Assembly (NCBI GenBank): GCA_965248055.1
Contig: CBDFIJ010000004.1
Span: forward strand, 2,976,001-3,040,000
Direction of reading: 5' to 3'
DNA length: 64,000 nt
Origin: Candidatus Multivoradales bacterium
GTDB taxonomy: Bacteria; Acidobacteriota; Thermoanaerobaculia; Multivoradales; JAHEKO01
Part shown: one piece after another, positions 6,255-24,530 of the stretch
How the letters are laid out: each line of letters begins with the position of its first letter
Position numbering within the stretch: the stretch's first letter is position 1
The notes under the pieces: model-generated
Databases searched by the model: none
The model's input: the letters and a program-made list of their open reading frames with translations, nothing else
Told to the model about the DNA's origin: nothing
Made by a program: the position numbers and the translations under genes

Positions 6255-6283
6255 TTTTTAGCAGCCGTCTGGGGTTCCGTCAA
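6255..6283 (-). promoter_or_regulatory. Probable tRNA-Phe promoter (TTGACG-N17-TAAAAA with extended TG)
   Basis: -35 at 6278-6283, TGC then TAAAAA at 6255-6260, about 30 nt upstream of the tRNA. Confidence 0.55.
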
Positions 6284-6288
6284 GTGTT

Positions 6289-7540
6289 TGTCCTAGATCA
6301 GTACCTTTGAGACAGTCGGCGGGAGCACGACCCCTGGGTCGAGCTTTAGAAGGTACCTTGCCGGGGGTTTTCTTTTCAAGCTCTTGTGCGGCCTGTAGGT
6401 GTTGTAAAGGTCCTGGAATCTCTGGATGTAAGGTCTCAAAGCCGAGACAGTATCGGGTAGCTCTTACATTTCATAAAACTCTCCTCTCCAGGTTTCCTGC
6501 ATTCGTTCGACGGTGCGGTTGAGCTTCGGACTCTTTGGCGGCAGCACATAGAGGGTGATGCCTCTATCTCGGCAGGCTTTCTCAAATTCATCCATAAATT
6601 CACTACCACCGTCCACTTGGATCGAGGTGATGTCAAACGGACACTCGGCAATGACTTTGTCTAGAAAGCGTGCTGCACAGCGAGAAGTGGCACGTTGATA
6701 GATCTCTCCCACTGTCCACCGGCTGACCGGACAGGAGGCTGAAAAGTGTTTGAGCCACTTGCCTGGAGCAGGGACCAGATGCAGCGTGTCGATCTGCAGT
6801 CGCTCGCCAGGGCGCGTTGGTCGGGGACACCATTTCGGCAGTCGCTGAGCGTGGAGCCGGCGCATACGCCGGGAGTTTTTGTACTTCTGGCGCCGGTAGC
6901 GTACCCGGTGGATTACCCCTCGATCCATTAGTTTGCGCAAGATACGCCCGACGGTGGCTTCTGATACCTCAAAGCCCTCGCCCTGGATCAGCGGCGCTAG
7001 GGTTTCCTTGCCCCAGGCAGGAAAGTCTCGACGGAGACTTTCGACTCTCTGTACCAATTCAGGTGACCAGTCAGCCTTACGCACCCGCTTGGGTCGGCTT
7101 GAGATCGGTTCTAGATGTCGGGGGCCACGCTCAAGGCGTTTGCGCCAGCGGTAAAGGGTAGCTCGACTCTTGCCCAAGATCTGAGCTGCTTCTTCACCCG
7201 AGATCCCCTTGTCGCGTAGTTGCTCGAAGCTCGCAACCAAGCGCAGCCGATCACGAGCCTGAGAGCTTAAGACAACGATGTCTTCACGGTAGTACTTGTA
7301 GAAACTTGGATCGAGTGCGACGATTTGCATCTGGGGGCCTCCCTTCGTTTTGGGTTATTCGATAGACCCGAAGGATCTTGGCCCCCTTTTTACTTGTCAA
7401 GGCTGTGGATGATGATGGGCTGGTGCAAAGCCAGCTACGCTTGCCTTCCCACAGCCCTTGGAAATCTCTCACGAGATTCCCACATCCCCCACAGCCTCGG
7501 CGACTAACGGCGCTGTCTCACAGGTGTTTGATCTAGGTCA
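6289..7540 (-). mobile_element. IS481-family insertion sequence, copy 1 (1252 bp)
   Basis: Near-identical to 23120-24371. Imperfect terminal IRs TGTCCTAGATCAGTACCTTTGAGACA / TGACCTAGATCAAACACCTGTGAGACA; single HTH+DDE transposase; flanked by GTT on both sides. Confidence 0.9.
6293..7330 (-). pseudogene. IS481-family transposase with premature stop (288 aa versus 345 aa in copy 2)
   Basis: TAT(Tyr)->TAA at 6464-6466 relative to copy 2; the DDE residues (QIDT, QVDGGSEF, VERMQ) are retained. Confidence 0.85.
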
Positions 7541-7623
7541 GTTTTGCGGTTCGACTGCAATCTTGGGTGACGCAAGCGGTCGAAAATGGAGAAAGTAGGG
7601 TATCTGATTGCAACAGCGGATCA

Positions 7624-14622: not shown

Positions 14623-16424
14623 CCGCAGCTACACCGCTTAGCTGGCTTCATCGCATTGAAGGACACTTTGCGTCTGCCTGCTTGGCGGCGATGGTGGCGT
14701 TGCCTCTGTTGGAGGCGTCGCTTCGATATCTATTTGAGACCGGAATTCCCGGCGCACTACCGTTCGTCCAGCACTTGAGCTTGTGGGTGGGTTTCTTGGG
14801 AGCGGCGATCGCAGCGCGCAAAGGTCGCTTGCTGCGTTTGGCCACCGGTGAGCTGATCGAGAACCGATTCGGCGGGCGGGCGCGACCTTGGCTGGAGTCA
14901 ATTACTGGGGTGATTGGAGCGGCAGTTTCGGCGCTGCTGGCGCAGGCCAGTTGGGTGATGGTGCAAATCGATCGCGACGCGGGGGGGGAGATCGCTGCCG
15001 GGGTCCCGGTTTGGGTTGGCGAATTGGTGTTGCCGATCGCCTTCGGCCTGATCGCCGTGCGCCTAGCGTGGCGCACCGGCACCATTCCGGGGCGTATTCT
15101 GGGGTTGGTTGCGGTGGTGGGTGGTTTGGCCATAGGACTGCACCCAGAATGGGCTGAAGGAGTGCCGACCTCGCCCGGGCTTTTGATCTTGGTTCTGGCA
15201 GGTCTTTTGGGCGCGCCGATCTTCGTCGTATTGGGTGGCGTTGCCTTGCTCTATTTCCTGGCCGACTTCGTGCCCCCTGCGGCGGTCCCCGCAGAGCTCT
15301 ACCGAATGGCTAGGTCCCCGACCTTGCCGGCGATTCCTTTATTTACTTTGGCGGGATTTCTGCTCTCTGAAGGGAACGCTTCGCAGCGATTGTTGGCGGT
15401 TTTTCGCGCTGCGGTGGGTTGGCTTCCGGGCGGTACCGCTATGGTTTGCGCCCTGCTTTGTGCTTTTTTCACCGCCTTTACCGGCGGCTCGGGGATCACC
15501 ATCTTGGCGTTGGGGGGCCTGTTGTTTGTCGCCCTGAAAGAGGACGGATACCGGGAACAATTTTCGTTAGGACTGCTGACCTCTTCGGGATCTTTGGGGC
15601 TGCTATTTCCACCCGCGCTGCCGGTGATTTTGTACGCGGTGGTTGCTCAAATACCAATTTTTGATCTGTTCCGTGGTGGCCTGATTCCCGGCGTGCTCTT
15701 GGTCGCTATGGTCGCGGGCTGGGGAATCTGGGAAGGAGTTCGACGGAAAATTCCTCGCTCGAAGTTTGGCTGGAAGCCGTTGGCGCAAGCGATCTGGAAA
15801 GCCAAGTGGGAAATGGCGATGCCGGTGGTGGTCGGGGTGGCGATCTTTGGTGGGTTTACCACCACCATTCAAGCTTCGGCGCTCGCCGCCGCCTACGCAT
15901 TGGTCACCCAAGTCTGGGTGCATCGAGACATCAAGACCTTCCAGCGGCTAGTGGAAGTTTTCGAGGAGTGTTTAGTCTTGGTCGGCGGAGTGATCATTAT
16001 TCTTGGGGTTGCTCTGGGCCTGACCAACTACCTAGTTGACGCGCAAGTGCCGGCCAGGCTGCTGGAGTGGGTCTCGACCAATATTGACTCACCGCTGGTT
16101 TTCTTGATCTATCTCAATGTATTTCTGCTCGTCGTCGGGTGTTTGATGGACATCTTTTCCGCCACCGTGGTGGTAGTGCCGTTGATCTTGCCGCTGGGCG
16201 TCGCCTTCGGTATCGATCCGATTCACTTGGGGATCATTTTTATCGCTAATCTCGAATTGGGCTATCTGACGCCGCCGGTGGGGCTCAACCTGTTTCTCGC
16301 GTCATATCGATTCGATCGCCCCTTGCTACAGATATGGCGCTCGGCGTTGGTGCCGCTGGTCTTGCTGGCGATCGGCGTGTTGCTGATTACCTACGTTCCA
16401 TTCCTTACCACCTGGGGTCGTTAG
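14619..16424 (+). CDS. TRAP transporter fused small/large permease DctQM
   Basis: Highly hydrophobic; AIPLFTLAG, FTAFTGGSG.TILALGGLL, GSLGLLFPP, ELGYLTPPVGLNLF. The frame stays open back to CTG 14619 (track start 14682). Confidence 0.88.
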   Translation: MTAATPLSWLHRIEGHFASACLAAMVALPLLEASLRYLFETGIPGALPFVQHLSLWVGFLGAAIAARKGRLLRLATGELIENRFGGRARPWLESITGVIGAAVSALLAQASWVMVQIDRDAGGEIAAGVPVWVGELVLPIAFGLIAVRLAWRTGTIPGRILGLVAVVGGLAIGLHPEWAEGVPTSPGLLILVLAGLLGAPIFVVLGGVALLYFLADFVPPAAVPAELYRMARSPTLPAIPLFTLAGFLLSEGNASQRLLAVFRAAVGWLPGGTAMVCALLCAFFTAFTGGSGITILALGGLLFVALKEDGYREQFSLGLLTSSGSLGLLFPPALPVILYAVVAQIPIFDLFRGGLIPGVLLVAMVAGWGIWEGVRRKIPRSKFGWKPLAQAIWKAKWEMAMPVVVGVAIFGGFTTTIQASALAAAYALVTQVWVHRDIKTFQRLVEVFEECLVLVGGVIIILGVALGLTNYLVDAQVPARLLEWVSTNIDSPLVFLIYLNVFLLVVGCLMDIFSATVVVVPLILPLGVAFGIDPIHLGIIFIANLELGYLTPPVGLNLFLASYRFDRPLLQIWRSALVPLVLLAIGVLLITYVPFLTTWGR

Positions 16425-16490
16425 TTTGGTGGGGGCCCGCTCATCGGTCGTCCCGGCGGGATATGGTGGGTGGGGGGCCGGGATTTAGCC

Positions 16491-16560
16491 GCAGTGCCAT
16501 CGAAGCAGTGGCATCGAAGCAGCGCCATAGAAGCAATGGCATAGAAGCAGCGCCGTAAAA
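16491..16560. repeat. Five degenerate tandem 14-bp repeats (GCAGTGCCATCGAA-like)
   Basis: gcagtgccatcgaa/gcagtggcatcgaa/gcagcgccatagaa/gcaatggcatagaa/gcagcgccgtaaaa. Confidence 0.85.
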
Positions 16561-16583
16561 GAGAGTGGTTTCTTAGAAAAGTA

Positions 16584-16619
16584 GATTCCCGCCCCACCTC
16601 CCGCCTCCGCGGGAATGAC
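16584..16619. repeat. REP-like palindrome (GATTCCCGC...GCGGGAATGAC)
   Basis: ATTCCCGC/GCGGGAAT inverted repeat, resembling the widespread GATTCCCGCCTNCGCGGGAATGAC REP-type element. Confidence 0.55.
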
Positions 16620-16783
16620 GGGAAAAAATATTCGTGCGAATGCACAACGAAAAGAGTAATTGCTGGAGTGGCAGAAATCGCTATGGAGTTATGGGAACGA
16701 CAGATGCGGGAACGAGCCAGGGAGAGCACCAAAGATAGGAAGCGACGTGACCGCGATGCGATAACGGAAAGATGAGCCAGAGG

Positions 16784-17128
16784 TTACCCTCCGCGCTCAA
16801 GGGTCCTGGATTCCCAGCGCTCGGCCTTCAAGCCATGAACCAGTTTGGCGACCACCGCCTCACTATCAAATGGAGCGCAGTGGAATAGGTCGGCGGCAAA
16901 CGCCCCCCGCTCGGGCCAAGTGTGGATCGCCAAGTGGGACTCGGCCAGCGTCGCGACCACGGTGACCCCTTGGGGTGAGAAATGATGCACGCTGAGTTCT
17001 AGAAGATGCCCGCCACAGGCCTCAATCGCAGCCAAGACGGTAGCCTCGACTTGAGCAACATCGTCGAGCACCGAAAACGGCGAACAATCGCCCTCGACCA
17101 ACAGATGAACGCCTAAGTGATCCTTCAT
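16784..17128 (-). CDS. speD: Pyruvoyl-dependent S-adenosylmethionine decarboxylase proenzyme (SpeD class 1b family)
   Basis: G.HLL.E, HHFSPQGVT, LAESHLAIHTWPE (E|S autocleavage site), DLFHC. ATG 17128 overlaps the TGA of the upstream gene (ATGA). Confidence 0.85.
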   Translation of the reverse strand: MKDHLGVHLLVEGDCSPFSVLDDVAQVEATVLAAIEACGGHLLELSVHHFSPQGVTVVATLAESHLAIHTWPERGAFAADLFHCAPFDSEAVVAKLVHGLKAERWESRTLERGG

Positions 17129-19296
17129 GGTTGCGATTTCGGGCGGGCGATGGCGGCGATCAGATATCCGTGCGATCGCAGCCATGGCAACCGGTCGTAG
17201 GCGGCAGAGAAAGGTATCAGTAGCCAGCGGACAAGGCTAGGCAAAGCTGGGATCTTGACCTTTTCGGTGTGCAATGCGAGATCCATCATTCGTAACCAAC
17301 CAGGTTGCAACAGGATACCGTTTCGCGCTTCAACTTGCAGCCCAGCGGCTTGGCAGATTCGTCCTAACTCGCTGTGGCTGTACGACTTCTCATCTCCATA
17401 GTGGTAAAGACCGAAAGCCTGAAGAGCGCCGACCAGGACCGGGCGCAAGAACGGGTCGCGGGCATTCGGCACTCCAAGAACCACCTTGCCGTTGGAGTCG
17501 GTGACCCGGCCGATCTCTCGCACCGCCTTTTGGGTTTCGGGGAAGTGTTCGACAGTGCCCATCGAATAGACGCCATCAAAGCAGCGATCTCGATAGGGAA
17601 TAGCTCGGACATCGGCGACCAGCAAGTTTGCCTTGACCCCGAGTCGGCGAAATTCATTCCTGGCCATGATCACGGTGGGCAAGGAGATGTCAATTCCATG
17701 TACGGTGGCTCCCTGCCCTGCGAGCCACTGCAAGATACGGGTGTTGCGCGCTTCGTCCCATAAGTCGGTTTTCAGGATCGTCAGTCCCTTGGGGCTAGGG
17801 AAAAACTCGCCTAGCAGCCTCTGCTCGTCACGGCGGTAGATCTGGGTGCTGGCTGCTTGACCAAGATCCGGGAACCATTCGCCGACTTGAATCCATTGGT
17901 CGAGATAGTCGGTGGTTGATTGCCTACGACGTAGACCCCAGGCAAGCAGCGTTGGCAATGCGATGCCGATGGTGCGCAATACCAGCGGATGCAGGACGAA
18001 TCCATCGGTAGCCAGATTGCCCAACAGAATCCGTAGACCGAGACCGGTTGCTACTAGGCCGACGCTAGCAACCGCGGTGGTGATCAAGCTCCGCCCACCG
18101 ACAACCAGTGTCAGGGCGACCAACAATCCAACCATGTAAGCTGGCAGAAAACTCAGTACTCCCTGCGGGTCGCCGATCGCCAGGTCGCTAGAGGTTCCAA
18201 TTCTGCCCCGATCCCATATTTGAATCAGGGTGCCGAGGCTAGCGCTGATCGTGATCGCCCAACCGGGACCGAGGTAAGTCGCAGCACCTCGTTGGCGGCG
18301 CACACGATTAATGGCGAACACCACCAGGACAGCCAGGATAATCTGGTAAAAGGCGTGCAGTGCGGTGTAGTGCTGCGTCCCCATCAGCCCAGTCGGCAGG
18401 GCCAAAACCAGAAGCCGGCTGGCGCCCAGGGCGGAAAACAACAGAAACGCGGCGAGGGTAGCGAAAATCTTGTTTAGGTTAGATTTTACCAGCGCCCAGA
18501 CCAGCCCCAGGTAGGCCGGGATCAAGGGGGTCAGCACGCACTCCTGGGTGACCAACCAGCGGCCGTGCGGGGTGGTCAGCAAGTTGCCGTTGATCCGTGC
18601 CTCGACACCCAACCAATTCATCACTTGAGCAGAGGCCGCAGTGATCCAAAACGCCCACTGGAGAATCAGGTCACTGGAGTAGAGGGTTGGCGCCAGGGCG
18701 AAGTAGACGATCGTAGCGCTGACTACCCAGGCCATCGGACCGGCGACTTCGCGCGCGATCGGCTTGCTGCTGATCGACGCCGCGGGTTTGCGAATCCAAT
18801 ATAGAACGAAGGTTGTTGCCGCCAAAACCAGCAACAAGGGAAACAATCGCAGGTGGAGAAGGTCGAAAAGGTCGCGATTGCTGGCCACCCAGGACAAAGA
18901 TCCGATGCGCGCGGTATTCAGCCCAATCAAGAGCGCCAAAGCGAGGCCGGCGCCGGTCCAGCGTCGTTTCCAAGCCAAAGGAAAAGACAGTAGCGCTCCC
19001 AACGTCACCGCCATGACGTCGGCTCCGGTGCAGCTCAGGTCGACCACCAACGCGTCGCGCGGAGCCCCAGTCAGAGAGCAGGCAGCACCGTGTTGCAACC
19101 GAGCAAATGGAATCAATAGATGGTCCTGCACCCAGGGAATACGTACCAAGGCAAAGAGGCCGACAATCCAGGCCAGTGAGCGTGCCAGGAATAGCACCAA
19201 TCCAGGTCGCTGTGGGTGGCGAACTGGTTGCGTTGGGGTAGTGATCTCTGTCGTGCTAGCCATCTGATGCGTAGGCCTCGGCTGAGAAGGTTGCAT
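17125..19296 (-). CDS. Fusion protein: exosortase domain + second divergent exosortase domain + TM linker + class I SAM-dependent transferase domain
   Basis: Domain 1 VDLSCTG...NTARI...LLH; domain 2 VTQEC...GASRL...ALH; C-terminal GIDIS, ADVRAIPYRDRCFDGVYSMGTVEHF, EIGRV...G...LGVPN. Confidence 0.75.
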   Translation of the reverse strand: MQPSQPRPTHQMASTTEITTPTQPVRHPQRPGLVLFLARSLAWIVGLFALVRIPWVQDHLLIPFARLQHGAACSLTGAPRDALVVDLSCTGADVMAVTLGALLSFPLAWKRRWTGAGLALALLIGLNTARIGSLSWVASNRDLFDLLHLRLFPLLLVLAATTFVLYWIRKPAASISSKPIAREVAGPMAWVVSATIVYFALAPTLYSSDLILQWAFWITAASAQVMNWLGVEARINGNLLTTPHGRWLVTQECVLTPLIPAYLGLVWALVKSNLNKIFATLAAFLLFSALGASRLLVLALPTGLMGTQHYTALHAFYQIILAVLVVFAINRVRRQRGAATYLGPGWAITISASLGTLIQIWDRGRIGTSSDLAIGDPQGVLSFLPAYMVGLLVALTLVVGGRSLITTAVASVGLVATGLGLRILLGNLATDGFVLHPLVLRTIGIALPTLLAWGLRRRQSTTDYLDQWIQVGEWFPDLGQAASTQIYRRDEQRLLGEFFPSPKGLTILKTDLWDEARNTRILQWLAGQGATVHGIDISLPTVIMARNEFRRLGVKANLLVADVRAIPYRDRCFDGVYSMGTVEHFPETQKAVREIGRVTDSNGKVVLGVPNARDPFLRPVLVGALQAFGLYHYGDEKSYSHSELGRICQAAGLQVEARNGILLQPGWLRMMDLALHTEKVKIPALPSLVRWLLIPFSAAYDRLPWLRSHGYLIAAIARPKSQP

Positions 19297-19318
19297 CGTC
19301 GTCGTTTAGACTGCGTCG

Positions 19319-21268
19319 GTGCTCTCAGTTGTCGTTTCTCGAAGTCTACTGCGCCAATCCCTGATGGTTGCGATCGGTTCTGTGATCTTGACCTTGGCGA
19401 TGGCCTGGCCGGTGGTGCAGCAGCCCAACGATTTGTTGTTTGGCACAGAGATCGTTGGACGGCACGCTGACGCCTATACGGTCATTCGAGGATTCGCCGA
19501 ACGTCAGCCGCTGGGCGGGTCGACCCAGCCGGTGGTCGACTGGCTTGGGGTCGGGCTGGCGTCACTCATCGGGGCTGTTGCCGCCTACAACCTACTGATC
19601 TTGATCTCGTTTCCGCTGGCTGCACTGGCGGTATTCTGGCTCGCTCGTTACCTGAAACTGGGGAAGTGGCCCGCGGCGTGGGCGGCGTTCTTGTTTGCTT
19701 TTTCCCCTCTGCACATCGCCCACGTTGCCTACCATCCGCATGTGGCCCAGGTTCAGTGGATTCCATTGGTGATTTTGGCGGTGATCGCTGCAGTCGACCG
19801 GTGGTCCCTACTGCGAGCAACCATGATGCTGGCAGTTGTGGCTTTGGCCTGCCTGTCCAATTTTTATACCGGGTTGATTCTCTTGGTGGTCCTGCCGGTG
19901 GTTGTGTGGGTTCTCAAACGATATCCAGTTGGCAGTGGAGAAGGATGGCGAAAAACCGTGTGGACCCTATGGCTGATCGCCTTGGTGGGCTCGCTTTACG
20001 TCGGGTTTTTCCACGGCACGGTGTTTCGTGATCCGGCTGCATTGGCTTTTCCAACGGCAGACGGCCAAAAGTACGCTGCCCAGCCCTGGTCCTACCTAGT
20101 GCCACCGGTGGACCATGCAGTGTTAGGCAAGATCGGCCAGACGTTTTGGCAGCGGACCACCGAGCCCGAAACCTTGGACGATGCGTTGCTGGAGCAACAG
20201 GTCTACTTGGGTTGGGTGGCGCTCACTCTGGCGGTTCTGGGGGCGTGGATCTGGCGTAAGCAACCTGGAGCATCAGCGATGCGCGCGGCGCCAGTTTTGA
20301 TCGCTATGGGTGTGATCGCGTTCTTGTTCTCGTTGGCGCCGGTGTGGTCGGTTTGGGTGCTGCAACTGCCGGGTCCGTCGTGGTTGCTGCGCGCCATGGC
20401 GCCGATGTTTCGTGCCTATGCGCGGTTTGGGTTCGTGGTTCAACTGGCGATATTTCTTCTGGCGGGACTCACCTGGACCCGATGGCGACTCCAAGGGGGG
20501 CGATGGGCCAAAGTCCCGGCGATCGTCCTTGTCTGCATCAGCGTCTTGGAGTACCTGCCGTTGCCGCCGTTGCGCTCCCATCCCTTGCGGCCCCATGCAG
20601 GCTACCGATTGTTGGCCGAAGCAGAGCCCGGATGGTCGGTCTTGGATTGCATTCTCCGGCCGCAGCTGCGCAGCTCGGTGGCACCGGTAGTCGATGGGAC
20701 TATGTATGTTGCCGACGGCGACACTTTGGATTGTGGTGAACCTGGACTGGCATCGAAGCTGGCTAGCATGGGTGTTGGATACGTAGTGGAGAACCTCGAA
20801 CGTCGCTTGGAGGATCGACCGGAGTTTCGCCTGCTCAATGAGGCGGATGGGGTTGGGATTTATGGCGTAGAGGCGGAACCGGTGCCCATCCACATTCGAC
20901 GTTGGGCCGGGTTTTCTTGGCGGGAGGGCGCGGGAGAATCTTCCATCCGCTGGGCTGGAGGCCAAGCCTCGTGGTGGCTTTCCAACCCGCGGTGGATCCC
21001 CGGGCCGGTGGAGATCGAGGTTGAGTTGGTCGCTTTTCCTGACCCGAGGGAGCTTACCGTTAAGCTCAATGGCGAAGTAATCGAGACCTTTCTCATCTCC
21101 AACCAGCGTTCCTGGTTCGTCTTGCGATTTACACCACATAGGGCGCGCAACCATCTAAATTTCATTGCCAGCGGAGATGCGATCGTGGCGGATCAGATCT
21201 TGGGCAACAGCGATCGCCGCCGGTTGGCGTTTGGGGTAGGAGGGGTTCGCTACCGTTCCGCCGACTAG
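19319..21268 (+). CDS. Polytopic membrane protein, GT-C/YfhO-like (probable lipid-linked-sugar glycosyltransferase) with extracytoplasmic C-terminal domain
   Basis: About 12 TMs; AYNLLIL.SF, AFLFAFSP.H, YLGW, FRAYARF pattern; C-terminal GFSWRE...IRW...D.RRLAF beta domain. Confidence 0.6.
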   Translation: MLSVVVSRSLLRQSLMVAIGSVILTLAMAWPVVQQPNDLLFGTEIVGRHADAYTVIRGFAERQPLGGSTQPVVDWLGVGLASLIGAVAAYNLLILISFPLAALAVFWLARYLKLGKWPAAWAAFLFAFSPLHIAHVAYHPHVAQVQWIPLVILAVIAAVDRWSLLRATMMLAVVALACLSNFYTGLILLVVLPVVVWVLKRYPVGSGEGWRKTVWTLWLIALVGSLYVGFFHGTVFRDPAALAFPTADGQKYAAQPWSYLVPPVDHAVLGKIGQTFWQRTTEPETLDDALLEQQVYLGWVALTLAVLGAWIWRKQPGASAMRAAPVLIAMGVIAFLFSLAPVWSVWVLQLPGPSWLLRAMAPMFRAYARFGFVVQLAIFLLAGLTWTRWRLQGGRWAKVPAIVLVCISVLEYLPLPPLRSHPLRPHAGYRLLAEAEPGWSVLDCILRPQLRSSVAPVVDGTMYVADGDTLDCGEPGLASKLASMGVGYVVENLERRLEDRPEFRLLNEADGVGIYGVEAEPVPIHIRRWAGFSWREGAGESSIRWAGGQASWWLSNPRWIPGPVEIEVELVAFPDPRELTVKLNGEVIETFLISNQRSWFVLRFTPHRARNHLNFIASGDAIVADQILGNSDRRRLAFGVGGVRYRSAD

Positions 21269-21417
21269 TGCAGAGAGCCAGCCGCTGCAGATGGCGGTAA
21301 GAGAATCGCCAGACACTCGGAGCCCTAGCAAAGAACCCCGTCCACTCCCGCAGACGGGATTGGATAACCGAACCGGTCGACCTGACGAAGCCAGAGTCGC
21401 CCCGGAGAGGGACAGGG

Positions 21418-22986
21418 TTAGTTGTCGAACAATTGCTGCTTGCGTAGCTGTAGCGCTGTGACGGTGAGCAAGGCCAGAACCAACAGGATCATCGCCCATT
21501 CCGGTACCGTCGGGGCAACCGGGGTTGGCTGGCAGGTGGCTTCGCAGCCATCGCCGTTGATCAGGTTGCCGTCGTCGCAAACTTCACCGAGACCAGTTTG
21601 CAAGACCCCGTCACCGCAGACTTCGGGGTCACAAACACTGTTGCAGCCATCGCCGTTGTCCAGGTTGCCATCGTCGCAGGTATCTCCAGCATCTAGGGTG
21701 CCATTGCCGCATGCCTCACTCTGACAGTCAGCGTTGCAACCATCCCCTTGGGTCTGGTTACCGTCGTCGCACTGTTCATCAAGGCCAGCCTGCGTGGTGC
21801 CATCGCCGCAGGATTCCGGAACACACATATCGGAGCATCCGTCTTCGGAGACCATGTTGCCGTCATCGCATTGCTCGCCGACATCAACCGTTCCATTGCC
21901 GCACACTTCGTTCATACAGGCAGCGTTGCAGCCATCCCCGTTGGTGCTGTTTCCGTCGTCGCACTCCTCGGGGTCTTGAACTACATTGTCGCCACAAGTT
22001 TCGCTAAGGCAAAGTGCGGTACAGCCGTCGCCATCAACGTTGTTGCCGTCATCGCAAGTTTCACCGAGTCCGAGTTGGACGATGTTGTCGCCGCAGAATT
22101 CGTCAATACACTCGAAGGTGCAACCGTCACCGGAGGTGGTGTTGCCGTCATCGCATTCCTCAGCGCCGCCGTCGTTGGTGGTGCCGTCGCCGCAGAATTC
22201 GTCTACGCACATGTCGGTGCAACCGTCACCGGAGGTGGTGTTGCCGTCATCGCATTCTTCGCCTGGGTCGATGTTGCCGTCGCCGCACTGGGGTTCATCC
22301 ATGCAGAATTCGTCGCAGCCGTCGCCGGATGTGTTATTACCGTCGTCGCATTGTTCGCTAGCGTCTAGGTTGCCGTCGCCGCAGACATCAACTTCCACAG
22401 TCATAGCAGTTAGGGCGTTGCATTTCGAGCCGGTTCCAGAGGTAACCGTTGGCGCTGTGCATGCCGGAATTGTTGCTCCGTTTTGCGCCCAGGAACTGAC
22501 GATACCGAGGCTCTGACCATCCCAGTCGCAAGAAACAGTGAACGTTTGTGTTGTGGTTACCGTGGCACTACCGGTACCGTCAACGTCATCACAAGAATCG
22601 CCATCGATTTGGTCGCCATCAGGATTGATCAAGTTGCCGAAGCACTGATCTGCGGCGCTCAAATTTGTGACGTCCGAGGTCGAACTGAAGGGCATCCACA
22701 GACCGGCGTCAAATTTTTGCCCGTTGCCTGCTGGGTCAAGATTCACCGTTACCTCCAAATCGAAGGTATCAGTCGGGTTTGCACAGGTGTCTGAAGTTGT
22801 AACTGAAATGACCGCCATACTGAGGTCGTTGGCTGAGCACGAGTTGAACTCGTTTGGACACGATTGTTGCTGCGCGTAGGCAGCCGCTGGCAGTAGCCAA
22901 CTCGCGGCTACGAAACTGGCTACAAACGCCAATGTTGGTATTGGAGCCAATGCGCGACGCTTAACCGACAAACTGAAGTGGATCAC
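21418..22986 (-). CDS. Secreted Cys-rich repeat surface protein (nine Myxococcus-type CGDG...CDDGN...GDGC repeats) with IPTL-CTERM-like sorting signal
   Basis: GTG 22986 after GGAGG; signal peptide ending AAAYA; nine repeats; tail [27 protein letters not shown] (motif, TM helix, basic residues). Confidence 0.85.
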
Positions 22987-23086
22987 TGGTGTGCCCTCCG
23001 GCCTTTGCCATTTTTGGGACCGTCTCTGAAACAAGAACTCCTCGGTCTCAAATGTCACCGAGGCGCAGAGAAAACTTATTGAGTGA

Positions 23087-23114
23087 TTTATATCACACCT
23101 TGACCGAATGTCAA
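23087..23114 (-). promoter_or_regulatory. sigma70 promoter of the Cys-rich protein gene (TTGACA-N16-TATAAA, extended TG)
   Basis: -35 at 23109-23114 and -10 at 23087-23092 in a locally AT-rich stretch. Confidence 0.65.
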
Positions 23115-23119
23115 GATTG

Positions 23120-24371
23120 TGTCCTAGATCAGTACCTTTGAGACAGTCGGCGGGAGCACGACCCCTGGGTCGAGCTTTAGAAGGTACCTTGCCGGGGGTT
23201 TTCTTTTCAAGCTCTTGTGCGGCCTGTAGGTGTTGTAGAGGTCCTGGAATCTCTGGATGTAAGGTCTCAAAGCCGAGACAGTATCGGGTAGCTCATACAT
23301 TTCATAAAACTCTCCTCTCCAGGTTTCCTGCATTCGTTCGACGGTGCCGTTGAGCTTCGGACTCTTTGGCGGCAGCACATAGAGGGTGATGCCTCTATCT
23401 CGGCAGGCTTTCTCAAATTCATCCATAAATTCACTACCACCGTCCACTTGGATCGAGGTGATGTCAAACGGACACTCGGCAATGACTTTGTCTAGAAAGC
23501 GTGCTGCACAGCGAGAAGTGGCACGTTGATAGATCTCTCCCACTGTCCACCGGCTGACCGGACAGGAGGCTGAAAAGTGTTTGAGCCACTTGCCTGGAGC
23601 AGGGACCAGATGCAGCGTGTCGATCTGCAGTCGCTCGCCAGGGCGCGTTGGTCGGGGACACCATTTCGGCAGTCGCTGAGCGTGGAGCCGGCGCATACGC
23701 CGGGAGTTTTTGTACTTCTGGCGCCGGTAGCGTACCCGGTGGATTACCCCTCGATCCATCAATTTGCGCAAGATACGCCCGACAGTGGCTTCTGATACCT
23801 CAAAGCCCTCGCCCTGGATCAGCGGCGCTAGGGTTTCCTTGCCCCAGGCAGGAAAGTCTCGACGGAGACTTTCGACTCTCTGTACCAATTCAGGTGACCA
23901 GTCAGCCTTACGCACCCGCTTGGGTCGGCTTGATATCGGTTCTAGATGTCGGGGGCCACGCTCAAGGCGTTTGCGCCAGCGGTAAAGGGTAGCTCGACTC
24001 TTGCCCAAGATCTGAGCTGCTTCTTCACCCGAGATCCCCTTGTCGCGTAGTTGCTCGAAGCTCGCAACCAAGCGCAGCCGATCACGAGCCTGAGAGCTTA
24101 AGACAACGATGTCTTCACGGTAGTACTTGTAGATACTGCGATCGAGTGCGACGATTTGCATCTGGGGGCCTCCCTTCGTTTTGGGTTATTCGATAGACCC
24201 GAAGGATCTTGGCCCCCTTTTTACTTGTCAAGGCTGTGGATGATGATGGGCTGGTGCAAAGCCAGCTACGCTTGCCTTCCCACAGCCCTTGGAAATCTCT
24301 CACGAGATTCCCACATCCCCCACAGCCTCGGCGACTAACGGCGCTGTCTCACAGGTGTTTGATCTAGGTCA
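23120..24371 (-). mobile_element. IS481-family insertion sequence, copy 2 (1252 bp, intact)
   Basis: Same IRs and length as copy 1, with few SNPs. Confidence 0.92.
23124..24161 (-). CDS. IS481-family transposase (HTH + rve DDE)
   Basis: AAQILGKSRATLYRWRKR HTH, WGKETL, PGERLQIDT, IQVDGGSEF, SPKLNGTVER, YNTYRPHKSL. Confidence 0.92.
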   Translation of the reverse strand: MQIVALDRSIYKYYREDIVVLSSQARDRLRLVASFEQLRDKGISGEEAAQILGKSRATLYRWRKRLERGPRHLEPISSRPKRVRKADWSPELVQRVESLRRDFPAWGKETLAPLIQGEGFEVSEATVGRILRKLMDRGVIHRVRYRRQKYKNSRRMRRLHAQRLPKWCPRPTRPGERLQIDTLHLVPAPGKWLKHFSASCPVSRWTVGEIYQRATSRCAARFLDKVIAECPFDITSIQVDGGSEFMDEFEKACRDRGITLYVLPPKSPKLNGTVERMQETWRGEFYEMYELPDTVSALRPYIQRFQDLYNTYRPHKSLKRKPPARYLLKLDPGVVLPPTVSKVLI

Positions 24372-24530
24372 GTTCGTGTATGCGTCCATGACATTTGGCA
24401 CTGATCGGTATGTTCAGCTACGTATTGTAGCGGTGGTTTTTGTCCGTGGCTCCAGTGTGGCGAGCGAAGGTCGCGCTAGCTGTATTGCAGTAGTGAGGCC
24501 GAATCTTTGTAATTGTTGTAAAAACTAGGG

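Follow-up and report, generated by a model that had tools for sequence, protein, structure and literature searches.

The DNA analyzed here, a window of 64,000 nucleotides from the genome of a soil-type Candidatus Multivoradales bacterium (contig CBDFIJ010000004.1, positions 2,976,001 to 3,040,000 of the forward strand), carries a four-gene block at window positions 16784 to 23058. In this block, a membrane protein that joins a tandem pair of exosortase domains to a methyltransferase-fold domain is accompanied by a SpeD-like decarboxylase, a GT-C-fold membrane protein and a secreted protein with a putative sorting tail. We are highly confident that the block represents a conserved exosortase system with these partner enzymes. 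On the further reading, that it is a dedicated, one-substrate system with an attached anchor-building module that works through an aminopropyl anchor, our belief and our doubt are evenly balanced for the mechanism as a whole. The first-pass annotation, which was made from the letters of the window, had described four clustered genes here, and all four are present. The block lies between a TRAP (tripartite ATP-independent periplasmic) transporter operon, which ends at 16424, and an insertion sequence (IS) element, and its features are as follows.

16784-17128, minus strand: speD-like gene for a pyruvoyl decarboxylase (P0002), 114 aa from the ATG at 17128; AdoMet_dc and TIGR03330 matches
17125-19296, minus strand: fusion gene (P0001), 723 aa; exo_archaeo and Methyltransf_11 profile matches
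18763-19209, minus strand: exosortase domain 1 of the fusion (aa 30-178; C89, R130, H148); TIGR04178 match
18262-18714, minus strand: exosortase domain 2 of the fusion (aa 195-345; C253, R294, H314); hhalign comparison with domain 1
17917-18261, minus strand: four extra membrane helices of the fusion (aa 346-460); helices of the AlphaFold2 (AF2) model and invariant columns
17128-17913, minus strand: class-I-methyltransferase-fold domain of the fusion (aa 462-723); Methyltransf_11 and VIA matches
19319-21268, plus strand: predicted GT-C-fold membrane protein (P0003), 649 aa; AF2 model and structure matches
21418-23058, minus strand: substrate candidate (P0004), a secreted Cys-rich repeat protein; TIGR02232 and DUF4215 matches
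21421-21525, minus strand: C-terminal sorting tail of P0004 (aa 512-546), PTVPEW, a hydrophobic helix and then LRKQQ; IPTL_CTERM match
23120-24371, minus strand: IS element with rve, rve_3 and HTH_32 domains, the right edge of the system and no part of it

The N-terminal part of the fusion matched TIGR04178 (exo_archaeo) over about aa 84 to 170 with 40 bits against a cut-off of 23, and with 43.2 bits in the genome search. The best named subfamily was XrtH (TIGR04177), whose score of 45.9 bits falls short of the cut-off of 86, and a weak match to the archaeosortase-like ArtE was found further on, at aa 218 to 297 (E 0.0019). When profiles built from 26 homologs were compared by hhalign, the region of aa 30 to 178 aligned to that of aa 195 to 345 with a probability of 85% and an E value of 6e-6, pairing C89 with C253 and R130 with R294, and the spacing from Cys to Arg is 41 residues in each half. 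C89, R130, H148, C253, R294 and H314 are unchanged in all 26 aligned homologs, which are 36 to 65% identical to the query; we take the Cys, Arg and His of the exosortase domains to be their catalytic residues. Judged from these alignments, the fusion carries a genuine second exosortase domain and thus a tandem homologous pair. The earlier description of a double exosortase fused to a transferase acting on S-adenosylmethionine (SAM) is borne out in its composition by these matches and by the Methyltransf_11 match given below.

The AlphaFold model of the fusion (predicted local distance difference test, pLDDT, 83.9; predicted template modeling score, pTM, 0.63) has ten long membrane helices and, after them, a globular domain at the C terminus; the helices of the extra segment run from 344 to 361, 380 to 399, 404 to 429 and 437 to 454. 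D376, Q378 and G379, which are invariant in the 26 homologs, fall in an outer loop by the positive-inside reading. According to this reading, which is our own, the protein would begin on the inner side of the membrane and carry its two Cys-Arg-His sets close to the outer face. Its C-terminal domain would be cytoplasmic, which also fits because SAM is available only there. Among the matches listed in the fold search of the fusion, none covered its N-terminal two thirds, and no model of NCBIfam (release 20.0) or Pfam names the fusion above its cut-off. A complex prediction between the exosortase region (aa 30 to 460) and the GT-C core (aa 1 to 520) scored 0.00 (mark 0.32) and is uninformative either way.

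The C-terminal domain has the fold of class I methyltransferases and an altered cofactor loop. Methyltransf_11 matched aa 520 to 606 (2.5e-16; 60.5 bits against a cut-off of 21.2), the match beginning at profile position 9, and in the VIA comparison CmoM came out best, with a Z of 21.8 and a root mean square deviation (rmsd) of 3.2 over 239 residues; the next rows are flat, at Z 18 to 21, and all of them are methyltransferases. Class I methyltransferases carry a glycine-rich motif I, in its usual form GxGxG, after strand 1. In the fusion, the loop after the first strand (506 to 510) reads DLWDEARN (motif I KTDLWDEARN), and GxGxG is not present: all three glycines are substituted, by W, E and R/K, within an invariant motif, and both the Pfam and the PDB sequence alignments of the domain start only past this loop. 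K509, D511, L512, W513, D514, E515, A516, N518, D536 and D562 are invariant in 26 of 26 homologs, and about 90 positions of the domain are invariant across these homologs (36 to 65% identical overall). D536 and D562, at the ends of strands 2 and 3, are presumably the acidic residues that bind the ribose and the adenine. With both of them unchanged in the homologs and the Gly loop replaced, the transferase site looks intact at its adenosine end and rebuilt with acidic side chains at its methionine end.

Related transferase domains occur in other fusions. In P0102 and P0120, the domain carries the motif DLWNEA and is fused to an NAD-dependent epimerase/dehydratase of the sugar-nucleotide type, and in P0076 it is fused to a lipid A-type acyltransferase (LpxL-like). 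These fusions hint at a sugar or a glycolipid as the acceptor, and the DLW(D/N)EA loop marks a candidate new class of SAM-fold transferase.

The partner enzyme P0002 matched AdoMet_dc (PF02675) at 8.6e-29 with 100.5 bits against a cut-off of 25, and TIGR03330 with 101.1 bits against a cut-off of 75.65. Aligned to the SpeD of T. maritima (1tlu; 1.9e-14), it keeps the equivalents of E11, S63, H68, P71 and C83 and the ES processing site, and on this alignment it is assigned as a class 1b SpeD-type pyruvoyl proenzyme. Its likely ATG (17128 to 17126) overlaps the TGA of the fusion gene (17127 to 17125) as ATGA, so the translational coupling proposed in the first-pass annotation agrees with the arrangement of the genes; the longest speD open reading frame (ORF) would begin at 17185. 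Among the SpeD neighbors of the related clusters, a Cys at S+20 is found in 54 of 54 and a Pro at S+8 in 53 of 54, and this Pro is also present in P0002. In Li et al. 2023 (PMC10407285), a Pro is described as fully conserved in true AdoMet decarboxylases and not in their arginine decarboxylase offshoots; we infer that the Pro at S+8 is this diagnostic residue.

The association of these genes recurs in other genomes. A pattern scan with one genome per species gave 308 stretches, 296 of which encode a relative, and the best 80 loci were kept; all 80 contain the transferase domain by construction, and nearly all belong to Acidobacteriota (Vicinamibacterales, Thermoanaerobaculia). The 39 loci of at least 20 kb make up the full-flank set. 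By tblastn, exosortase domain 1 was found in 69 and domain 2 in 68 of the 80 loci, and hidden Markov models (HMMs) found the double exosortase in 70; in the full-flank set, the exosortase is present in 37 of 39. SpeD was found in 58 loci by tblastn and in 61 by HMM (36 of 39 with full flanks), and the GT-C protein in 41 loci by either method (23 of 39). An adjacent protein with an IPTL-type tail stands in 20 of the 39 full-flank loci. BLAST clustering had put the GT-C protein in 54 loci; this count was rejected, since its surplus consists of long ORFs antisense to other genes, and the HMM figure of 41 is used throughout. The linkage of fusion homologs to speD, GT-C and IPTL-CTERM genes, on which the first-pass annotation itself had made its reading depend, therefore holds in other genomes, where some homologs are even fused to SpeD.

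The architecture of the loci varies around the same parts. Exosortase, transferase and SpeD are encoded in one frame in 6 of the 80 loci; exosortase and transferase are fused in 22 and stand as separate genes in 42, often in the order SpeD, exosortase, GT-C, transferase; and 10 loci show only the transferase within the retrieved DNA. PF02675 (AdoMet_dc) is contained in 6 of 39 database homologs of the fusion, and further fusions join the transferase to SpeD (P0074) and the exosortase to SpeD (P0150). Only 162 proteins among 1.84 billion representatives match at E ≤ 1e-30, so the family is small. No other neighbor family recurs: kinases, a Crp-type regulator, PSD1/PSCyt proteins and an ABC permease each occur in at most 11 loci. 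For this composition, no curated NCBIfam or Pfam family and no paper was found in a literature search covering papers readable without a subscription, in agreement with the first-pass annotation, which knew of no described system composed in this way. As an exosortase system of the IPTL-CTERM/XrtH-related kind, the locus belongs to a known type. What appears to be new is the doubling of the catalytic domain, its fusion to a SAM-fold domain in which the cofactor loop is rebuilt, a dedicated SpeD and a GT-C protein without a family name.

As a side observation, the SpeD core HLWPEE...HICDYR is distinctive in a Vicinamibacterales subgroup of loci (L045, L052, L058, L061, L069, L070, L072, L075, L076 and L078). 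In this subgroup, SpeD is accompanied by the transferase, an exosortase follows 1 to 3 kb on, and no GT-C gene lies within 10 kb; these loci may represent a slimmed-down or otherwise rearranged form of the system.

P0004 has the makings of a substrate. It carries a signal peptide, nine Cys-rich, acidic myxo_disulf_rpt/DUF4215 repeats with 44 Cys (TIGR02232, 1.9e-76; DUF4215, 1.1e-43) and a tail in which PT(V/A)PEW is followed by a helix and basic residues. Against IPTL_CTERM (TIGR04174; cut-off 20.5), this tail scored 18.5 bits by hmmscan and 23.1 bits in a six-frame genome search, and PF18203 gave no match to it at E ≤ 0.1; the description of the tail as IPTL-CTERM-like in the first-pass annotation fits these scores. 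It is the best IPTL_CTERM match of the window genome and the only such sorting tail in it. Five weaker IPTL_CTERM matches of that genome were considered as sorting tails and rejected, since they come from internal membrane segments or from the termini of ordinary membrane proteins.

In the related loci, tails were sought with a relaxed pattern, in which a [VIAP]P[TVAS][LMV][PSG] motif precedes a hydrophobic stretch and a C-terminal basic residue. Among 6231 ORFs it hit 41, which lie in 41 of the 80 loci, compared with 2 of 11005 ORFs of the window genome, one of which is P0004, and 36 of the 41 tail proteins lie within 500 bp of a system gene (median distance, 80 bp). A stricter pattern hit 31 of the 80 loci and none of the 11005 ORFs of the window genome; the PTVPEW of P0004 misses it. 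The tails of relatives read VPTLPEW, and those of the same-genus genome read PTAPEW. One family of substrates, seen in 24 loci, combines Ice_binding with an Ig-like or DUF7933 domain and matches Pfam IPTL-CTERM; of two neighbor substrates scanned with PF18203 (cut-off 20.8), L050 scored 25.1 and L066 20.7 bits. The window substrate itself was found by tblastn in none of the 80 related loci, where the substrates are of other families, for example Ice_binding and DUF11. Taken together, the tail and the position of the gene make P0004 a candidate for the cognate exosortase substrate.

The third partner, P0003, starts 22 bp from the longest start of the fusion gene, on the opposite strand. It matched no Pfam or NCBIfam family at E ≤ 0.1, STT3, PMT_2 and YfhO included. 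Its AF2 model (alignment of 28 sequences; pLDDT 87.5, pTM 0.82) was searched with Foldseek, which listed GT-C enzymes in each of the top 34 places and paired the C-terminal beta-sandwich with CBM6/CBM29. The structural alignments by VIA-align gave the following values.

STT3 (8agb_A): Z 24.1, rmsd 5.1, 413 aligned
AftD: Z 23.6
AglB: Z 23.3
PglB: Z 20.3
Pmt4: Z 19.4
ArnT: Z 16.9
PIGU (GT-C-fold subunit of the glycosylphosphatidylinositol, GPI, transamidase): Z 11.8

The divergent neighbor at 22 bp that the first-pass annotation had called GT-C/YfhO-like is therefore GT-C-like in its predicted fold, and no sequence match links it to YfhO or to another named family. H49, D51, D74, E292, R365 and R369 are invariant in 28 of 28 homologs, and D51 and D74 are located between helix 8-28 and helix 86-111 of the model, in the region that we take to be the catalytic position of GT-C enzymes, an acidic residue in the first outer loop. 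On the strength of the model, P0003 is a GT-C-fold protein of an unnamed sequence family, with a C-terminal module resembling a carbohydrate-binding module. Longer forms of it, fused to other parts, were sought and not found, which is weak evidence. A distant paralog was seen at G000:C4:1452261-1453430 of the window genome (family profile E 1.8e-13; 691-aa frame), far from any exosortase.

The window genome (3.41 Mb, 4 contigs, 97.7% complete) contains one exosortase-family (exo_archaeo) match and one AdoMet_dc match, both in the locus. Spermine_synth (PF01564) has no match in it, so at this completeness there is no spermidine synthase to partner the SpeD. Orn_Arg_deC_N (PF02784) has no match at E ≤ 0.001 either, although 13 of 14 control genomes have one. 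As diaminopimelate decarboxylase normally falls into this family, the lysine and polyamine routes of the genome may be unusual, or the search filter missed the family. The fusion was matched at E ≤ 1e-10 in 16 of 41 relatives, the window genome included (one of the 16 is unpublished). A genome of the same genus is syntenic, with thiolase, TRAP genes, SpeD, fusion, GT-C, two substrate paralogs and aldehyde dehydrogenase, at identities of 66% for SpeD, 60% for the fusion, 54% for GT-C and about 60% for the substrate paralogs.

From these parts, the following mechanism can be proposed. SpeD would make decarboxylated SAM (dcSAM), or would decarboxylate an aminocarboxypropyl adduct, and the methyltransferase-fold domain would move the three-carbon amine arm onto a lipid-linked acceptor at the inner leaflet. 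Whether dcSAM serves as the donor or aminocarboxypropyl transfer is followed by decarboxylation, the net result would be an aminopropylated head group bearing a primary amine. The acceptor would then be flipped to the outer face, and in about 6 of 10 loci the GT-C protein may help to build or place it, using polyprenyl-phosphate-linked donors outside the membrane. One exosortase domain would cleave the tail of the substrate and form a thioester, which the amine would resolve, leaving the protein amide-linked to the anchor. The fuller form of this proposal, a bacterial counterpart of the GPI anchor in which a SpeD-fed, non-canonical aminopropyl transferase, a GT-C-assisted glycolipid or lipid phosphate and an amide link made by the tandem exosortase act together, seems to us somewhat unlikely.

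Several observations weigh against the aminopropyl anchor. In both sequence and fold, the transferase domain is closest to ordinary methyltransferases; PF01564 has no match on the fusion at E ≤ 0.1, and neither spermidine synthase nor MccD is among the fold matches listed for the domain. Two Psd homologs in the window genome make it probable that phosphatidylethanolamine is available there as a simpler amine. The GT-C gene is missing from 16 of the 39 full-flank loci, and no flippase or polyprenyl-phosphate (lipid-) sugar synthase recurs in the neighborhoods. According to PMC10407285, S63, H68 and C83 fail to separate AdoMet decarboxylases from their arginine/ornithine decarboxylase homologs, and a SpeD without a SpeE, the state of the window genome, is a flag for SpeD homologs that have turned into arginine/ornithine decarboxylases. 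Finally, five related genomes encode long Spermine_synth-domain proteins elsewhere, so SpeD could also feed polyamine synthesis there.

The chief alternative builds on several of these points and makes the C-terminal domain a true SAM methyltransferase acting on the anchor or the substrate, with SpeD as a decarboxylase of the arginine/ornithine type or for another amino acid, whose amine product (agmatine, putrescine or a decarboxylated lipid head group) would be the nucleophile for the exosortase. The Methyltransf_11 and related matches suit it, as do the nearest solved structures, which are all methyltransferases and include phosphoethanolamine and phosphatidylethanolamine N-methyltransferases; the changed SpeD function flagged in PMC10407285 would be explained, and with no Orn_Arg_deC_N match in the genome another route to agmatine or putrescine would be useful. 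However, replacement of all the motif I glycines within an invariant motif is odd for a site that uses SAM as a methyl donor, the Pro that the same source reports as typical of true AdoMet decarboxylases is kept in nearly all cluster neighbors, and several proteins carry SpeD immediately after the transferase domain, as suits two enzymes that act in turn on one cofactor. We regard this alternative as unlikely. It is less likely still, to the point of being highly improbable, that SpeD is a general source of dcSAM for polyamines and the methyltransferase-fold domain a non-catalytic regulatory or scaffold domain. In all five related genomes checked, the sole AdoMet_dc match lies inside the cluster and Spermine_synth-domain proteins are encoded elsewhere, and an altered motif I could mean lost catalysis, but the 97.7%-complete window genome has no Spermine_synth match, SpeD is in frame with the transferase domain or the exosortase in several lineages, and the roughly 90 invariant positions speak for a working active site.

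A further possibility concerns the GT-C protein only and overlaps the other readings: P0003, being oligosaccharyltransferase- or mannosyltransferase-like, would glycosylate the secreted substrate, and SpeD and the transferase would modify the glycan or its lipid carrier. The best folds are indeed those of protein-glycosylating GT-C enzymes (STT3, AglB, PglB and Pmt4), the substrate has nine N-x-S/T sites, five of them D-G-N-x-S/T within its repeats, and the transferase family is fused to epimerase/dehydratase and lipid A-type acyltransferase domains in P0102, P0120 and P0076. On the other hand, AftD, an arabinosyltransferase for glycolipids and glycans, ties with STT3; P0003 has no STT3 or PMT match in Pfam, and in our own reading of its sequence no WWDxG-type motif is seen; the substrates of other loci come from unrelated families; and the full-flank loci that lack GT-C count here as well. 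We find this role somewhat doubtful. With regard to the sites themselves, the extended bacterial N-glycosylation sequon is D/E-x-N-x-S/T. The five D-G-N-x-S/T sites of P0004 (aa 241, 273, 306, 370 and 434) fit it and adjoin a GT-C gene with an oligosaccharyltransferase-like fold, and they could also be a by-product of the repeat consensus.

The flanks of the block were also inspected. On the left, the 359-bp spacer downstream of speD (16425 to 16783) contains a tandem repeat at 16491 to 16561 with a period of 14/28 and 2.5 to 4.6 copies. On the right, the transposase (rve) of the IS element lies at 23124 to 24161, and the element stands directly upstream of the substrate gene. Hence the first-pass annotation was right about the repeat and the IS as boundaries; its REP (repetitive extragenic palindromic)-like element did not hold up, as the left spacer occurs once in the window genome. 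The IS, of about 1.25 kb, has at least nine near-full copies of 98.9 to 99.8% identity in this genome, with a second window copy at 6279 to 7543, and is missing from the syntenic site of the same-genus genome, where the two substrate paralogs stand; a loss of one substrate copy linked to the IS is possible. A hairpin followed by a T-run at 16647 to 16632 on the minus strand could be the operon terminator. No Rfam family, riboswitch or other, was found at E ≤ 0.1 within 16000 to 24500, and the two promoter-like sites found are not above expectation, the mean of shuffled sequences being 2.7.

To our knowledge, the target to which exosortases attach their substrates has not been established so far, and this locus may show what surface proteins are attached to. 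Many genomes join the sorting enzyme covalently to partners of narrow and assayable chemistry, a pyruvoyl decarboxylase and a SAM-fold transferase, and with one substrate per genome in the window lineage the acceptor question is reduced to four genes and one substrate. If the GPI-like reading were true, an exosortase acceptor would be defined for the first time, and dcSAM would for the first time be put to use outside polyamine synthesis, in cell-envelope assembly.

By comparison with known systems, the likeness to the GPI transamidase is one of analogy only: the GPI system combines a Cys transamidase (PIGK), a GT-C-fold protein (PIGU) and an amine-bearing glycolipid, as our locus would on the proposed mechanism, whereas the two transamidases share no ancestry and the fold of P0003 lies much nearer to the catalytic STT3 and AftD (Z about 24) than to PIGU. 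ArnT, which P0003 also resembles at its lower Z, puts an amino sugar on lipid A. Common to the SpeD/SpeE polyamine pathway and our locus is a SpeD-like proenzyme of class 1b that keeps the ES processing site along with the His, Pro and Cys positions; unlike that pathway, the window genome is without SpeE, and the partner of SpeD is Methyltransf_11-like and not a Spermine_synth domain. The IPTL-CTERM/XrtH systems (TIGR04177, TIGR04174, PF18203) are alike in the Cys-Arg-His exosortase membrane domain, for which XrtH is the best subfamily, and in the IPTL-like tails. The fusion differs from XrtH in its sub-threshold score, the tandem duplication, the four extra helices and the fused transferase domain, and SpeD and the GT-C protein are conserved partners here.

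Two further systems bear on the proposed chemistry. According to PMC10491745, the methyltransferase-like MccD and the decarboxylase MccE together aminopropylate microcin C, the order of the steps being unsettled. A methyltransferase-like SAM enzyme and a decarboxylase thus jointly install an aminopropyl group there, as we propose from the genes for our locus; in contrast, MccE depends on pyridoxal phosphate and is not a pyruvoyl enzyme, and the MccD/MccE acceptor is the phosphate of a peptidyl nucleotide, with no membrane or sorting context. A parallel for an amine-tied sortase is ArtA of Haloferax and Methanosarcina. According to PMC7157517, ArtA needs PssA and PssD, artA, pssA and pssD are syntenic in Methanosarcina, and the chemistry proposed is a thioester resolved by a primary amine, that of the archaetidylethanolamine supplied by PssA and PssD. 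In both cases, a sortase of the same superfamily is linked to a decarboxylase that makes, or here would make, an amine lipid. The present locus departs from the ArtA arrangement in having a SpeD-type and not a Psd-type decarboxylase, a methyltransferase-fold transferase in place of PssA, enzymes fused to the sortase, and Psd genes elsewhere in the genome. After ArtA with PssA/PssD, it would be the second case in which a sortase from this superfamily and a decarboxylase that generates an amine are linked genetically.

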